From: Escherichia phage Turkey3
Direction: 5' to 3' (one strand)
Length of the DNA stretch: 64,000 nt
Sequence record: PQ471515.1
Positions 1,894 to 21,109 of the stretch are shown piece after piece (the stretch's first letter is position 1; the number at the start of each line of letters is the position of its first letter). The notes under the pieces are model-generated. The model did not search any database. It was given only the letters and a program-made list of their open reading frames with translations, and was not told where the DNA came from. The translations under genes were made by a program, and so were the position numbers.

Positions 1894-2169
1894 CCTCATA
1901 TGAAAATCGTAATAACAGTACTGATATTAACAGAATGGTGTCAGTACTGATTTTAATCTAAAGCATTATGCCACCAGCTTGTGCTGGTGGATTCCCTCTA
2001 ACAGTATTCAGTACTACATGATGGTCTTCATCCTCCTAGGGTAACATAGTGAGGGCTATGATGGCAGTACTGAATACTCCCTTTCAAAAGATAGATCTAT
2101 GGTATAGTACTGACGGATTTTGGGTGTAGTTACCCTGGATGGATTTTGGACGTAGATATGTCTAGCCCT

Positions 2170-2296
2170 CCAGAAGTCTGGAAGTAAAGATGGCTATCCA
2201 TCTAGACGGCTAAACGGCTAGATTTCTGGATGGCTAGACGTTTGGACGGCTAAACGGCTAGATGGTTACACGTCTGGAAGTATAGACGGCTAAATC
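2170..2296. repeat. iteron-like direct repeats (GACGGCTAAACGGCTAGAT x2 plus partial copy; CTGGAAGTA and GATGGCTA sub-repeats)
   Basis: Exact 19-mer at 2205-2223 and 2245-2263, partial copy 2285-2296; flanking GTCTGGAAG at 2172-2183 and 2271-2280. Confidence 0.6.
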
Positions 2297-3035
2297 AAAA
2301 TTTTATTTTGTTTTTTCCAATAGTTCCCCTACCGCGTGGGGATAGTTTCCCCGCAGTATCTGGAGTTAGATTTTTCTGAATCTGGAATCATTATCTTATA
2401 AACTGGGGGCAATGTCAACGGCCTGGACGGATATTTTTAAAAATTTTTTCAGTACTGAATTTTGGGCGTAACTATGCACCCGGTGGGCTTGAGTCTTTCT
2501 CGACTTGATGGAACTATTATACAGTACTGAAAAAATAAAGCAATACCCTGGAAGCAAAAAAGTTTTAATTAATTTGCTTGCTATCCTGGGCCGGACTATG
2601 GTACTATATTTCAGTACTGAGAAAGTGCGTTTACCTGCTAGGGTGCGGGAGTGTATCCTTTTTTTATATCTTGAATTTTGGGCGTAATTCCGCACCCTCT
2701 GGGGTTTCCGCTTTCTCGCGTCTATGTAGTAATTATACGCTTTTTCAGGATCAAGTCAATACCTAAAAACAAAATAATTGAAAATAATTTAACGCGTTTA
2801 AACGGCCCGTAAAGCCCTGGAATGATTGGAATGGTGCAAATGTATAGCTTAGGTGTATTAATGCGTTAGAATGCGTCTGAGGCCGTTTTATGGGGTGTAG
2901 TAGTGATTTGGTTGATTCAGTACTGAATAATAGTACTACTATATAGAAAGATAGTTCCCCTGGATGGTTGCAGTACTGAATGATAGTTCCCCTATATAGA
3001 AAGAAAACTATTTTAAAAGTATTTGTAGAAAGTAC

Positions 3036-3063
3036 TTGCAAACTATGTTTAAAGGCGTATAAT
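3036..3063 (+). promoter_or_regulatory. early promoter cassette (TTGCAA-16-TATAAT)
   Basis: TTGCAA 3036-3041, TATAAT 3058-3063, upstream A-rich/AGTACT element. Confidence 0.65.
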
Positions 3064-3077
3064 GTTTTACATCGAGA

Positions 3078-3094
3078 GCGGGAACACTTCCTGC
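3078..3094 (+). promoter_or_regulatory. conserved 5'-leader hairpin (GCGGGAA-loop-TTCCTGC)
   Basis: Inverted repeat ~15 nt downstream of -10; same GGGGAA/TTCCCC hairpin recurs after most early promoters. Confidence 0.5.
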
Positions 3095-3118
3095 TACACA
3101 TTACGAGAGATTAAAACG

Positions 3119-3481
3119 ATGGCGACTCAAATCACTAAAATTATTGCTAACCTGGTTAACTTTCGCGACGAGATGAAAGATCTTCCGGCAGAAACGGTAA
3201 AAATTCACATTGCAGCTTATCGGGAACTTATTGCAATGTTACCTCTTAAGCGTGAACAATACGCCGCAACCGTGATGCTTGATGCGATGATCCATAAGAT
3301 GATCGCCAGTGATTTAACGATGGCTTATCAGTACATGGGCGAATTGTTCGCGGTGTATAGTAAACCAGTACCAGGAATGGAAAGTACAGAAGTATTACAC
3401 GGTTTAAATTTAAAACAAGATGCATGGGATAATATGCCTCGTTTCCTGGTATGGGCTGACAGTGGCAAAATTTACGAATAA
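3119..3481 (+). CDS. hypothetical early protein
   Basis: ATG after promoter+hairpin; track ORF 3062 start lies inside promoter so internal ATG chosen. Confidence 0.6.
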   Translation: MATQITKIIANLVNFRDEMKDLPAETVKIHIAAYRELIAMLPLKREQYAATVMLDAMIHKMIASDLTMAYQYMGELFAVYSKPVPGMESTEVLHGLNLKQDAWDNMPRFLVWADSGKIYE

Positions 3482-3495
3482 GTTTAATAAAGTAC

Positions 3496-3523
3496 TTGCA
3501 AACTATGTTTAATGGCGTATAAT
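3496..3523 (+). promoter_or_regulatory. early promoter cassette
   Basis: TTGCAA 3496, TATAAT 3518; hairpin GTGGGGAAtagTTCCCCAC 3536-3554. Confidence 0.65.
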
Positions 3524-3574
3524 GTTTTACATCAGGTGGGGAATAGTTCCCCACTATATAAGAGGATTAAAAAA

Positions 3575-3814
3575 ATGGCTAAATCAAAAATGTTCTTAGG
3601 TCACAAAAACAAAACTCATTGGAATGTAAGCCTTTGGATTAATAACGATGAGTCATTGTACCGGTTGGCTCAGGACTTTATTAACGATAGCACTAATCGC
3701 AATGATGCGGCCCGTCATATGATGTTATTTTTAGAACAGACTGGACAAGATAAAACACCGGACGGATTCAAATATAGCACTACTGCGATCCGTGCTGCAA
3801 TGGTTGGAATGTAA
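3575..3814 (+). CDS. hypothetical early protein (paralog of 5618..5857)
   Basis: RBS AGAGGA; shares GHKNKTHWNVSLWINN...PDGFKYSTTAIRAAMVGM with 5618 gene. Confidence 0.7.
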   Translation: MAKSKMFLGHKNKTHWNVSLWINNDESLYRLAQDFINDSTNRNDAARHMMLFLEQTGQDKTPDGFKYSTTAIRAAMVGM

Positions 3815-3899
3815 TAGAATTTATTTAAAGTACTATCATTTTTTGCGATAGTACTTTAAAATAGTGTTTTATTCATACACCAACGATAAGGGCAACAGC

Positions 3900-19135: not shown

Positions 19136-19408
19136 ATGTCCAGCTACTCCGCTACTATGATCATTAAAGATATGAACGGTAATCCTACTTCTGCTGGTGG
19201 ATCATTTGGAAACATTAATTTAGATGGTCGGTTATCCATGCAATCAGCCATCGATGCAGCGAAAGAAGTTTTTAAGAATGAATGTACTGTAAGTAAGCTG
19301 GATTATATGGGATTCGCTATCGAGAAAACTAATCGTTTTGTGAACTACAAAAATCCACTGATGATCGATACTAACCTGAAAGCAAACGAAGTGGAATACT
19401 TATTATGA
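19136..19408 (+). CDS. hypothetical early protein
   Basis: Promoter+hairpin, RBS AAAGGAAAC. Confidence 0.6.
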   Translation: MSSYSATMIIKDMNGNPTSAGGSFGNINLDGRLSMQSAIDAAKEVFKNECTVSKLDYMGFAIEKTNRFVNYKNPLMIDTNLKANEVEYLL

Positions 19409-19596
19409 CAGTTGAAGAAGTTAAAAAAGTACTGGCAGTACTACGATATCATAATCATTGCAAGGTGAAGAATGATCCTGATTATGTTGATTCATCCCTG
19501 GAGGAAGACACCTTAAACGCGATAAGCCATATGCAAACATTAGCAAAGCGTATGACCGAAAAGAATAGGCCGGACTATATCGGAAATAAAATTTAA
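19405..19596 (+). CDS. hypothetical early protein
   Basis: ATGA overlap with previous gene. Confidence 0.5.
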   Translation: MTVEEVKKVLAVLRYHNHCKVKNDPDYVDSSLEEDTLNAISHMQTLAKRMTEKNRPDYIGNKI

Positions 19597-19683
19597 AAAG
19601 TACTTGCATTGTAGTTAGATTAACGTATAATGTTTTATATCGAGAGGGGGAAATGGTTTCCCCTCAAGTCCAGGAGATACACC

Positions 19684-19947
19684 ATGAACACTATCGAAAT
19701 CACTATCAATGCACACGTATACGACAACGTAGTACTGCAAACTACTATGACCGCTAATGATACCAGTACTTTGCGGAATACTGTTATTAGTGCCGTATGT
19801 GCTGCAATCGGTGATGTTGCCCTGGAAAATGCAGAACATATCAACAACGGTTTCACTATGTGCAAACGTGATAACGCAAAACATATCATCGTGGAAGGTT
19901 ACGGCGGTGTAGAATTTAATGTTTATATGAAAAAAGTACTTGCATAA
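19684..19947 (+). CDS. hypothetical early protein
   Basis: Promoter+hairpin, RBS CAGGAG. Confidence 0.6.
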   Translation: MNTIEITINAHVYDNVVLQTTMTANDTSTLRNTVISAVCAAIGDVALENAEHINNGFTMCKRDNAKHIIVEGYGGVEFNVYMKKVLA

Positions 19948-20014
19948 TAACTAAAACAAAGTATAATGTTTTGCATAGGGGGAGATATCCTCCCCCACTA
20001 AAAGGAGTAATAAA

Positions 20015-20239
20015 ATGGCTAACTTTGATGAACTGATGCGGGAAGTAGCTAACCTGGCAGAAGAGAAGAAATCATTCGATTCTATCTATAACACCGCTCA
20101 CCGTGATTCAGTACTGGCATGTAACCAGGATCAAAAAGATGAACTAATCGCCACATATCATGAAGCATGGAAGTACTACCGACAATGGGAGAAAGAAGAA
20201 AGCGAGTCTACCATCGAAGGTATCAATAATCTAATCTAA
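20015..20239 (+). CDS. acidic hypothetical protein
   Basis: Promoter+hairpin, RBS AAGGAG. Confidence 0.6.
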   Translation: MANFDELMREVANLAEEKKSFDSIYNTAHRDSVLACNQDQKDELIATYHEAWKYYRQWEKEESESTIEGINNLI

Positions 20240-20313
20240 AGTTTTATTTCAGTACTATTGACATAGCTTGATAGTACTGATGTAATAACTTTACTAACTA
20301 AAGGGGAAACATA

Positions 20314-20571
20314 ATGGAGCAGTTCACACAATATCGGGTAAATCCTCAAGCTATGGCCTACGTAGAAGACCATAAAACGTTACCAGTACTGCAACCAGTT
20401 AAAGGCCGTATCTATCGTGGCCTTGCCTGGGATACGGCCCAGGATGGATATAAAACCGTCGCCGTGGGGATGTATTGCGGGAATGGTGAATGGTTTGATC
20501 CTAGCAATCCGATTGCACTTGACAGTACTGAAAAAATGAAATGGGCCGACTACATCGAAGATATTTCATAA
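20314..20571 (+). CDS. hypothetical early protein
   Basis: Promoter TTGACA..(TGTAAT) upstream; RBS AGGGGAAAC. Confidence 0.55.
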   Translation: MEQFTQYRVNPQAMAYVEDHKTLPVLQPVKGRIYRGLAWDTAQDGYKTVAVGMYCGNGEWFDPSNPIALDSTEKMKWADYIEDIS

Positions 20572-20661
20572 AAACTATTTGACAGTACTAACCAGTAATG
20601 TATAATGTTTTACATAGAGCGGGGGAATAGTTCTCCCGCCAATAGTTTGGAGTTAAACATT

Positions 20662-20862
20662 ATGTCTATCGCTATCGCCCTGGTTGAAGTACTGAAAGAA
20701 GCTAAAGCCAACCTTATCGATGTACAGATTAAGGAATTGCAAAACGGCTTAATCGGCTGTACTTGTACCGCTGGTGGAGCGGCAGACTATCGAGAACACG
20801 AATCACTCGAATCACTGGTTCGGTATCTTACCATGATCGTTGATGATTGGAGAATCATCTAA
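20662..20862 (+). CDS. hypothetical early protein
   Basis: Promoter+hairpin, RBS GGAG. Confidence 0.55.
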   Translation: MSIAIALVEVLKEAKANLIDVQIKELQNGLIGCTCTAGGAADYREHESLESLVRYLTMIVDDWRII

Positions 20863-20885
20863 CAAAAAAAAGAATAAAAAAGGGA

Positions 20886-20914
20886 TTGACTCCGGTCAGT
20901 CCCTTTGCTATTAT
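20886..20914 (+). promoter_or_regulatory. repeated terminator/promoter module, copy 4
   Basis: GGGATTGACtccgGTCAGTCCC hairpin overlapping TTGACT; TATTAT -10; CCCACAGGGTGCATAGGTGTATCT downstream. Confidence 0.5.
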
Positions 20915-21109
20915 ATACGCATAGACAAAAACTAGCCCACAGGGTGCATAGGTGTATCTAAAATATATAGTTAATAACGGTGAGTAACTATCTGCTGGTG
21001 GAGTGAAAACTATTAATAAAAAAACTATTGACAAAGTATATCAGTACTGCAATAATGTATCTCGTAGGGCGGCAATGGTGCGACGGCCCACAAAGTTAGG
21101 AGCTTCAAA

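Follow-up and report, generated by a model that had tools for sequence, protein, structure and literature searches.

Putative Chi sites are concentrated in the direct terminal repeat of an Asteriusvirus jumbo coliphage

The 64-kb stretch of phage DNA analysed here (the window) is enriched in the octamer GCTGGTGG, whose copies form a strand-biased cluster, about 100 times denser than chance predicts, confined to a direct terminal repeat (DTR) of 21 kb. We consider it likely, judging from sequence, that these are functional Chi sites, which selection would have concentrated in the DTR and which would steer RecBCD at the genome ends. An exact search located 12 copies, 9 on the + and 3 on the - strand, all identical to enterobacterial Chi (5'-GCTGGTGG-3'), and 11 of them lie in 1971-21001, inside the DTR (Table 1).

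Asteriusvirus phages isolated on E. coli are 94-97% identical to the window and, by this comparison, its source is an Asteriusvirus jumbo coliphage; GCTGGTGG is thus the Chi of the host, the nearest relatives growing on E. coli. This also supplies the host identification that an earlier reading of the letters alone (the sequence-only reading) had proposed as a check. We placed the ends of the window phage by homology to phage fEgEco12, which has two identical DTR copies and ends determined experimentally, with PhageTerm and restriction digests (PMC13070987). When the edges of this DTR and the adjoining unique DNA were mapped onto the window by blastn, fEgEco12 positions 1..20993 corresponded to 1395..22363, position 353740 to 1394 and position 20994 to 22364. 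Because right-end unique DNA is followed by the DTR and then by the left unique region, the window resembles either the junction of a concatemer or an assembly in which the DTR has been collapsed. The GC content is 0.385 in the DTR versus 0.355 in the rest. The coincidence of the cluster with the 21-kb DTR, the organising fact here, was absent from the sequence-only reading.

That reading had judged the octamer to be commoner than chance, and the counts agree, since about 0.5 copies would be expected in the window (~0.49, with a maximum of 2, in dinucleotide shuffles). The + strand of the 21-kb segment holds 9 Chi as compared with ~0.11 expected and, AGTACT-type words aside, Chi is the most enriched 8-mer of the window. 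The right-end unique DNA (1-1394) lacks Chi, and the 41.6 kb beyond the DTR contain a single copy. The DTR makes up 32.8% of the window, and the binomial probability that it would hold 11 of the 12 sites is ~4 × 10−5. Within the DTR there is one Chi per 1.9 kb, with a strand split of 9:2. All five + octamers reported previously are real, and the positions given for them are accurate to about 10 nt, but four others (14525, 17784, 19193 and 20770) had been missed, and, as these four lie within ORFs, the claim that the octamer is always intergenic, in non-coding hairpin contexts, was wrong. The cluster comprises seven non-coding sites and four coding ones, the latter all sense, three reading GCT-GGT-GGN (Ala-Gly-Gly) and one CTG-GTG.

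Table 1. Terminal repeat, unique regions and exact Chi copies in the window
Feature	Position	Strand	Evidence
Right-end unique DNA	1-1394		fEgEco12 mapping
DTR, single copy, 20,969 bp	1395..22363	.	blastn mapping of fEgEco12 DTR edges
Left unique region	22364-64000		fEgEco12 mapping
Chi, 577 nt into DTR, left palindrome arm, faces left-end RecBCD	1971..1978	-	exact search, fold
Chi, right hairpin arm of CCACCAGC-ttgt-GCTGGTGG, non-coding	1983..1990	+	exact search, fold
Chi, intergenic, second and last left-end-active Chi of DTR	8385..8392	-	exact search
Chi, intergenic, 54 nt from inverted partner	8447..8454	+	exact search, fold
Chi, 3' arm of terminator hairpin	13065..13072	+	fold
Chi in ORF 14432-14620, in frame GCT GGT GG (Ala-Gly-Gly)	14525..14532	+	exact search
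Chi, intergenic, 9 nt past ~95-nt repeated module, ~40 nt upstream of consensus promoter	15425..15432	+	
Chi in ORF 17746-17988, CTG GTG (Leu-Val)	17784..17791	+	exact search
Chi in ORF 19136-19408, in frame Ala-Gly-Gly	19193..19200	+	exact search
Chi in ORF 20605-20862, in frame Ala-Gly-Gly	20770..20777	+	exact search
Chi, rightmost +, intergenic, ends 1,362 nt from DTR right end	20994..21001	+	
Chi outside cluster	62341	-	exact search

The contexts of the sites vary, from a perfect palindrome to a terminator arm, promoter spacers and coding sequence. The inverted partners CCACCAGC noted by the sequence-only reading are real at 1971 and 8385. The first forms a perfect hairpin in 1971-1990 (8-bp stem, 4-nt loop; −16.3 kcal/mol, z = −3.5), and the pair 1971/1983 is also present at 578/590 in fEgEco12 and 484/496 in Klebsiella phage fENko-Kae01 (Kae01). 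The 8385/8447 pair folds no better than shuffled sequence (z = −0.96), so that the long stem proposed there is unsupported; site 8447 has an ortholog in phage EJP2, where it lacks the inverted partner. The terminator at 13065 (stem 13050-13060/13065-13075 with a T-rich tail; −23 kcal/mol, z = −7.2) has a 20-nt core, CCACTGGTTAACGCTGGTGG, that is identical in Kae01 at 19342. Sites 14525 and 17784 are orthologous to sites in fEgEco12 g032 and g043, respectively, and fEgEco12 site 11378 reads GCTGGGGA in the window, indicating Chi turnover within the genus.

Genome-wide, fEgEco12 has 12 Chi in the DTR (10 +, 2 -; 0.57/kb) versus 24 in 332,747 bp of unique sequence (0.072/kb), a ratio of about 8. 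We mapped the unique-region sites onto the annotation by hand: 20 of the 24 are on the sense strand of genes, 17 in the Ala-Gly-Gly frame, and one is intergenic, so that Ala-Gly-Gly codons account for most of these copies. On the + strand of all six DTRs or DTR-like segments, Chi is the commonest of the 168 permutations of G5C1T2, with 9 copies versus 3 for the next-best permutation in the window DTR, 10 versus 3 in that of fEgEco12, 12 versus 2 in that of Kae01, 7 versus 1 in that of Klebsiella phage Muenster, and 7 versus 2 and 7 versus 3 in the DTR-like segments of XbC2 and EJP2. In the unique region of fEgEco12, Chi is level with GGTGCTGG, at 14 each. The exact Chi word is 55-120 times above expectation, whereas its 24 one-mismatch variants, pooled, are just ~1.5-2 times above it. 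The 8-mers that surpass Chi in the comparison of the fEgEco12 DTR with unique DNA are almost all promoter, 5'-leader, Shine-Dalgarno or AGTACT words.

The pattern recurs in relatives that share just ~36-40% identity in the DTR kinase: DTR-confined, + biased clusters occur in Kae01, Muenster, XbC2 and EJP2, at mostly non-homologous positions. The DTRs of Kae01 and Muenster, annotated from PhageTerm, contain 14 and 8 Chi, respectively, versus 2 in the following 30 kb of Kae01 and none in the following 18 kb of Muenster. Counts in XbC2 and EJP2 are 9 versus 0 and 8 versus 0, for DTR-like spaced-gene segments that are putative repeats. Strand totals for the window plus three relatives are 35 + and 7 -, or 17 + and 5 - for the non-coding sites of the four phages. 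The hosts of the relatives with this pattern are Klebsiella or E. coli, and Klebsiella uses the same Chi as E. coli. XbC2 is labelled a Xanthomonas phage; its genus, Mimasvirus, otherwise holds GAP32 and CBB, which we take to be Cronobacter and Pectobacterium phages, respectively.

The Chi cluster is independent of base composition, codon usage and flanking repeats. Together, the composition, mismatch and flank controls and the recurrence suggest that the exact Chi sequence behaves as if under selection. The sequence-only reading had raised modulation of RecBCD, on condition that the host uses E. coli Chi, and the coliphage host, these controls and the recurrence in distant relatives lend support to that suggestion.

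The packaged genome is linear with a DTR copy at both ends, and in it the nine + sites are oriented towards the right physical end and the two - sites towards the left one. RecBCD entering from the right end acts on top-strand Chi (PMC12315714). Moving leftwards from there, the enzyme would thus meet nine + Chi, the first of them, 20994..21001, at 1.4 kb, while RecBCD from the left end would meet two - Chi, the first at 0.6 kb. If RecBCD recognises these sites during infection, as we infer, recognition would make it stop degrading and instead load RecA onto a 3' tail still within the repeat, and the DNA degraded before Chi would be redundant only. The tail could then invade the other DTR copy, in the same or a sister genome, and the invasion would lead to circularisation, to concatemers or to the priming of recombination-dependent replication ahead of any phage protein. 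RecBCD would be attenuated mainly at the right end, with ends channelled to RecA-mediated recombination between repeats; the benefit may be end protection or inter-repeat recombination, and the right end is presumably the more exposed. Such protection is asymmetric (9 right-facing versus 2 left-facing sites), and explaining it needs an assumed exposed end. All DTR genes are read in the + direction as well, so that codon usage could account for some of the strand bias at the four coding sites. In the literature we found no experimental report of a RecBCD link in this phage group, no data on recA/recBCD dependence of Asteriusvirus cyclisation or growth, and no report of terminal-repeat Chi of this sort in jumbo phages.

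Two other readings would deprive the octamer of any role of its own. The cluster could be a by-product of composition and codons, that is, of a GC-richer DTR with a G-rich + strand and preferred Ala and Gly codons in GCT-GGT-GGN; this accounts well for the unique region of fEgEco12, with its in-frame sense copies and parity with GGTGCTGG, and would fit three of the four coding sites of the window DTR. However, we regard it as very improbable, because most DTR sites are non-coding, Chi exceeds each octamer of the same composition 3- to 7-fold in every DTR, the codon analogue GGTGCTGG is unenriched in DTRs, coding Chi in the fEgEco12 DTR (5 in roughly 14 kb, an estimate) are ~5 times denser than in the unique region, and the GC excess of the DTR lifts the expectation only ~1.5-fold by our estimate. 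Alternatively, the octamer could be a passenger in an intergenic hairpin, terminator or promoter module duplicated within the repeat, as the sequence-only reading also proposed. The copies at 15425 and 20994 do follow 90% identical copies of a ~95-nt module (15324-15416 and 20866-20958), 13065 is a terminator arm, 1971/1983 a hairpin, and GC-rich stems such as AGCCCAC...GTGGGCT overlap the 3' half of Chi. Yet the 20-nt flanks of the 35 + sites of four phages carry at most 0.4 bit per position, about zero, and these sites share no information outside the octamer; contexts differ, four sites being coding and the Kae01 octamers lying in promoter spacers; the spacing from module to Chi varies (9 versus 36 nt); and exact Chi is absent for ~450 nt around two further module copies (11665 and 18603). 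A decaying repeat family would, moreover, enrich one-mismatch variants, which are not enriched here, and we give this proposal very little credence.

It is just as improbable, in our judgement, that GCTGGTGG is a site or RNA motif of another factor, such as a phage regulator, terminase repeats or an early-transcript motif, with its identity to Chi coincidental. The co-orientation of all + sites with early transcription and the position of several Kae01 sites directly upstream of -10 hexamers would suit such a factor, but the exact host Chi recurs in at least four divergent lineages with diverged promoters and other motifs, and the sites fall in coding sequence, terminator arms and ORF-free DNA at no fixed distance from promoters or start codons. 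Somewhat less improbable, although still unlikely, is that the same RecBCD-Chi chemistry serves defence evasion, either by limiting the RecBCD-generated fragments that supply CRISPR spacer acquisition or by inactivating the small RecBCD pool of the cell without a protein inhibitor, so that systems guarding RecBCD would stay untriggered. Chi-bounded spacer acquisition, Chi-dependent inactivation of RecBCD and retron guarding of RecBCD are established. No RecBCD inhibitor was recognised among the 39 DTR-encoded proteins (PHROGs, Pfam) or is annotated in fEgEco12; nevertheless, one may hide among the DTR proteins, most of which lack an assigned function. The fEgEco12 annotation, on which our account of recombination genes rests, also lists a T4-like set, comprising RecA/UvsX-like g372, UvsY-like g373, gp46/47-like g337/g338, gp32 g371 and endonuclease VII g339, so that host recombination may be dispensable. 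Against evasion, a role in repeat recombination specifically predicts Chi limited to the redundant segment, whereas a pure sink or anti-CRISPR role would be served equally by Chi just inside unique DNA.

A more speculative extension of RecBCD steering, which we put forward tentatively, is that the DTR array may be a protein-free, cis-acting 'first-minute' device of Rak2/Asteriusvirus-type jumbo phages, disarming or using up RecBCD and setting one replication polarity. The few RecBCD molecules of the cell would be spent without an inhibitor for defences that guard RecBCD to sense. Since almost all of the sites are turned towards the same end, recombination-dependent replication would have a single polarity: invasion of the left repeat by the 3' tail of the right end would prime DNA synthesis towards the right, in the direction of early transcription. 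If true, this would imply that the right end is exposed first or to the greatest extent.

Exposure of linear phage ends to RecBCD is the same problem that lambda Gam, T7 gp5.9, P22 Abc2 and the T4 end protector gp2 solve by protein, blocking or hijacking RecBCD, whereas the signal here would be a putative cis-acting DNA element that precedes phage gene expression; no homologues of these four proteins were recognised among the DTR ORFs. The E. coli chromosome shares the octamer and an orientation bias, along its G-rich strand, with many copies in GCT/GGT/CTG codons, but chromosomal Chi lie mostly in ORFs, at 1 per 4.6 kb, and those of the DTR are mostly non-coding and 2.4 times denser, at 38% GC.

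The DTR array most resembles, by analogy, phage P1 and the LLS-type lambdoid phages. In P1 and its relatives, Chi cluster in the DNA that becomes terminally redundant (Subramaniam & Smith, bioRxiv 10.1101/2021.07.08.451572), as they are in the terminally repeated segments of fEgEco12, Kae01 and Muenster. Both systems have a Chi density above that of E. coli, concentrated in terminal direct repeat DNA, and a proposed RecBCD/RecA-dependent recombination of the repeats after injection. However, P1 is a temperate phage whose headful packaging from pac gives a variable redundancy of 5-10 kb, as compared with a virulent 350-kb phage with a fixed, exact 21-kb DTR; its Chi are on both strands (31/50 top) rather than biased ~5:1; and its recA and recBC dependence is experimental, whereas the role proposed here derives from sequence. 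LLS-class lambdoid phages have top-strand Chi clustered toward the right end (Zheng et al. 2025, PMC12315714), at 1 per 1.86 kb in LLS itself (PMC12315714). The window phage is similar in density (~1 per 1.9 kb), strong top-strand bias, terminal clustering and an enrichment unexplained by local GC. High Chi density in lambdoid phages accompanies the absence of phage recombination genes (PMC12315714), and the LLS class lacks a recombination module, an anti-RecBCD gene and long repeats at its cos ends. The jumbo phages, in contrast, have Chi in a duplicated terminal segment and, by the fEgEco12 annotation, carry T4-like UvsX, UvsY, gp46/47 and gp32, so that the lambdoid rule is not directly transferable and we do not file this phage in the LLS class, although the ends of both may work alike.

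An exact search of the window for Chi, the octamer GCTGGTGG that regulates RecBCD in Escherichia coli, returned 12 copies, against an expectation of 0.49 and a maximum of 2 in dinucleotide-preserving shuffles. Chi was also the top-ranking 8-mer by over-representation outside the AGTACT family. The window is 94–97% identical to the Asteriusvirus jumbo coliphages PBECO4, G17, phAPEC6 and fEgEco12, indicating that the host is E. coli and, hence, that GCTGGTGG is the Chi of the host. The sequence-only reading, which had proposed that the word was commoner than chance and might act on RecBCD if the host used this sequence, was therefore right about the excess, and the condition it set on the host is borne out. 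The five + strand copies it had named all exist, at positions within about 10 nt of those given, but its count was too low, missing four further + strand sites.

The same reading had placed every copy in intergenic hairpins, which proved to be partly correct. Among the 11 clustered sites seven are non-coding, whereas four lie inside ORFs in sense orientation, three of them (14525, 19193 and 20770) read as GCT-GGT-GG (Ala-Gly-Gly) and one (17784) as CTG-GTG. Hairpins occur at some sites: the inverted pair at 1971/1983 forms a perfect 8-bp stem with a 4-nt loop (z = -3.5 in folding against shuffles), and a strong terminator hairpin (z = -7.2) has the copy at 13065 as its 3' arm. Conversely, folding led us to reject the long stem proposed for 8385-8453, because the arms at 8385 and 8447 are 54 nt apart and pair no better than shuffled sequences (z = -0.96).

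Direct terminal repeats (DTRs) of about 21 kb have been published for Asteriusvirus phages, with 20,993 bp in fEgEco12, as established by PhageTerm and restriction digests, 21,525 bp in vB_Ec-M-J and 20,668 bp in Sharanji (PMC13070987, PMC11895373). In the whole fEgEco12 genome the two copies of the DTR proved identical, and we located the window equivalents of the DTR edges and of the unique DNA next to them. The DTR contains all 11 clustered Chi sites, with none in positions 1-1394 and one in the 41.6 kb that follow. The order of right-end unique DNA, one DTR copy and left unique DNA indicates that the source is a DTR-collapsed or circularised assembly, or else a concatemer junction; it does not show the arrangement of virion ends. 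The single Chi outside the DTR (62341-62348, - strand) lies where a short ORF ends, directly ahead of a T-run, and is oriented to face a rightward-moving RecBCD; it probably arose by chance or at the codon level. In a megablast search with window positions 1-22000, 13 records labelled as Campylobacter jejuni phages matched this DTR region, which may reflect wrong labels, contamination or a short element in common.

Location of the DTRs, Chi sites and a repeated module, with Chi counts per strand and the + strand count of the next best octamer of the same base composition
Genome	Feature	Coordinates	Chi	Chi in flank	Next best octamer	Basis
Window	Right-end unique DNA	1-1394				fEgEco12 mapping
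Window	Single DTR copy, 20,969 bp	1395-22363	9 +, 2 -		3	fEgEco12 mapping
Window	Left unique region	22364-64000				fEgEco12 mapping
Window	GCTGGTGG, + strand	1983, 8447, 13065, 14525, 15425, 17784, 19193, 20770, 20994	n = 9			exact search
Window	GCTGGTGG, - strand	1971, 8385, 62341	n = 3			exact search
Window	Repeated intergenic module, ~95-108 nt, four copies	11665-11772, 15324-15416, 18603-18709, 20866-20958				
fEgEco12	DTR		10 +, 2 -		3	
Klebsiella phage fENko-Kae01	DTR	1-19736	12 +, 2 -	2 in 30 kb	2	annotated
Klebsiella phage Muenster	DTR	1-20030	7 +, 1 -	0 in 17.8 kb	1	annotated
XbC2 (Mimasvirus; OP292654.1)	DTR-like segment, ~17.5 kb	1-17500	7 +, 2 -	0 in 8.8 kb	2	spaced genes
EJP2	DTR-like segment, ~22 kb		7 +, 1 -	0 in ~25 kb	3	spaced genes

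We evaluated the specificity of this enrichment in the complete genome of fEgEco12, assigning its Chi sites to genes by hand against the annotation. Chi density was 0.57/kb in the DTR (12 sites, seven non-coding and five coding) and 0.072/kb in the unique region (24 sites in 332,747 bp). A by-product of composition or codon usage accounts well for the latter, because 20 of the 24 sites are sense in genes (17 read in the Ala-Gly-Gly frame), with three antisense and one intergenic; there, Chi also ties with the Gly-Ala-Gly word GGTGCTGG, at 14 copies each. This explanation, however, leaves unaccounted for the seven non-coding DTR sites and the top rank that Chi takes, among the 168 octamers of its base composition, on the + strand of each DTR or DTR-like segment; we thus rejected it for the DTR and retain it for the unique region only. 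In a strand-specific ranking of words in the DTR versus the unique region, Chi was 46th in fEgEco12 (P = 5e-7) and 10th in the Klebsiella phage fENko-Kae01 (Kae01). Almost all the words above it in fEgEco12 belonged to promoters (AAAAAGTACTTGCA, GTATAATG), the 5' leader (TGTTTTACATCA), the Shine-Dalgarno sequence (AAGGGGAGAA) or the AGTACT family.

The octamer could also be a passenger of a repeated module, the fallback that had been offered for it as part of a repeated hairpin. The exact word was 55-120x above mononucleotide expectation, while its 24 one-mismatch variants, pooled, exceeded theirs by just ~1.5-2x, and, across 35 + strand sites, 20-nt flanks held at most 0.4 bit per position; these results point to selection on the exact octamer, not to a repeat family. 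They contradict the passenger explanation, as does the varying distance between Chi and the one module that is shared. Finally, the word might be the motif of another factor that happens to coincide with Chi, which is unlikely because it stays exactly Chi where promoters and other motifs have diverged, and in unrelated contexts.

We retrieved distant relatives by tblastn with the protein kinase encoded in the DTR (window 18020-18601; 36-41% identity), and a DTR-confined Chi cluster recurred in all four examined, those of XbC2 and EJP2 lying in segments that are DTR-like by gene spacing only. Chi positions and contexts were mostly unlike between lineages; in Kae01, for instance, several copies occupy promoter spacers, as in TTGACT-N-GCTGGTGG-N-TATTAT. 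Close to the left physical end, at about 0.5 kb, an inverted Chi pair is common to the window, where CCACCAGCttgtGCTGGTGG begins 577 nt inside the DTR, to fEgEco12, which has this pair at 578/590, and to Kae01, with CCACCAGCttaaGCTGGTGG at 484/496. The terminator core CCACTGGTTAACGCTGGTGG of the window (13053) recurs unchanged in Kae01 (19342). Turnover was also apparent inside the genus, the fEgEco12 Chi at 11378 being GCTGGGGA in the window.

Chi differs among bacteria, a Pseudomonas example being GCTGGCGC. When we used the DTR kinase gene to look for relatives of non-enteric hosts, the sole candidate was XbC2, which itself contains a cluster of the enterobacterial Chi despite Xanthomonas vesicatoria being its recorded host, and which cannot serve as a clean negative control. 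Its genus, Mimasvirus, otherwise comprises GAP32 and CBB, which we take to be phages of Cronobacter and Pectobacterium and which would make it, XbC2 apart, a genus of enterobacterial phages. Either the evolutionary host of XbC2 is enterobacterial or its host record merits a check.

Together, the statistical and comparative evidence strongly favours a RecBCD-related reading, and we consider it likely that the DTR octamers are selected, functional Chi sites. With physical ends placed by homology, RecBCD entering at the right end would meet nine correctly oriented Chi, the first after 1,362 bp, and from the left end two, after 576 bp and ~7 kb. RecBCD recognises Chi with a probability of about 30% per site, which, if assumed here, gives a cumulative recognition of ~96% for nine sites and ~50% for two. 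Top-strand Chi is the orientation recognised by RecBCD coming in at a right end (PMC12315714). Beyond this arrangement we infer the steps: upon recognition RecBCD would load RecA onto the 3' tail and, since the sites are all inside the repeat, the DNA degraded would be redundant and the tail could find its homologue in the other copy of the DTR. The 9:2 split of sites between the two directions suggests an exposed right end, for example one that enters first. The phage encodes T4-like recombination genes, so that host RecBCD and RecA would matter chiefly before these are expressed, or the benefit would be defensive. In the latter case, the array may reduce end degradation and CRISPR spacer capture, or exhaust RecBCD without an inhibitor protein.

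The DTR stands out as an early region: its short + strand genes are spaced by ~80-100 nt, and its near-consensus sigma-70-type promoters number 31 on the + strand and two on the other (window 3036-21480). These promoters share a conserved leader, (C)GTATAATGTTTTACATCA, and the short genes have each their own promoter and often their own terminator, an organisation ending exactly at the right edge of the DTR. Beyond 22364 genes are overlapping and tightly packed; directly after the DTR (22460-26180), ~18 such ORFs of ~65-90 aa show ~76% internal DNA similarity between neighbours, indicating a tandemly amplified paralogous family. The palindrome CAGTACTG has 62 copies in the window (~2.6 expected per strand), of which the DTR contains 38, and AGTACT has 138 copies in the DTR, many inside early promoters (AAAAAGTACTTGCA at -35; CAGTACTGTATAAT, giving a TGn extended -10) and others free-standing. 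Positions 1395-3060, with several AGTACT sites and degenerate GGCTAGACGTCTGGAT-like tandem repeats at 2203-2294 (periods 16, 32 and 40), are a candidate packaging or replication signal region. The repeated intergenic module contains a terminator hairpin, AAAGGGATTGACTCCGGTCAGTCCCTTT, with a stem that runs into a promoter-like TTGACT-N17-TATTAT; AGCCCACNGGGTGCATANNTGTATCT comes next, and Chi follows two of the four module copies.

Pfam searches of 39 DTR ORFs (window 3062-22211) identified a DksA/TraR zinc finger, a GNAT acetyltransferase, a ParE-like toxin domain, a few DUFs and a weak protein-kinase match, and their PHROGs matches were to unknown-function families throughout. Neither database revealed a recognisable RecBCD inhibitor among these ORFs, nearly all of unknown function. 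A tRNA scan of the window found none, ruling out a first guess of a T5-like tRNA-rich region.

Full-text literature searches returned no paper linking Chi to jumbo phages or Asteriusvirus. Chi-rich termini are already described in the temperate phage P1 and in lambdoids without recombination genes; our results would extend the use of this "self" signal at phage DNA ends to a very different lifestyle, that of virulent 350-kb phages, in which the signature is limited to the exact 21-kb repeat, is found in more than one genus and occurs alongside T4-like recombination genes. Jumbo phages have puzzling long repeats, to part of which our results give a concrete candidate function, and the Chi-dense segment offers a practical terminal-repeat marker for several deposited genomes of the group with unmapped ends.

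The closest known systems are P1, with Chi dense in its terminal-redundancy region (bioRxiv 10.1101/2021.07.08.451572), and the LLS-class lambdoids, with right-end, top-strand clusters of one Chi per 1.86 kb (PMC12315714), which have in common with this phage Chi density, orientation bias and terminal location. P1 is further alike in the end-repair logic, recombination between repeats, proposed for its redundancy, and the LLS-type lambdoids in Chi orientation and clustering, although the presence of T4-like recombination genes sets this phage apart from the LLS class, characterised by having no Rec module. Unlike both, it is a virulent 350-kb phage with a fixed, exact 21-kb DTR, and its Chi sites include some set within palindromes and terminator arms, or, in the case of Kae01, within promoter spacers.
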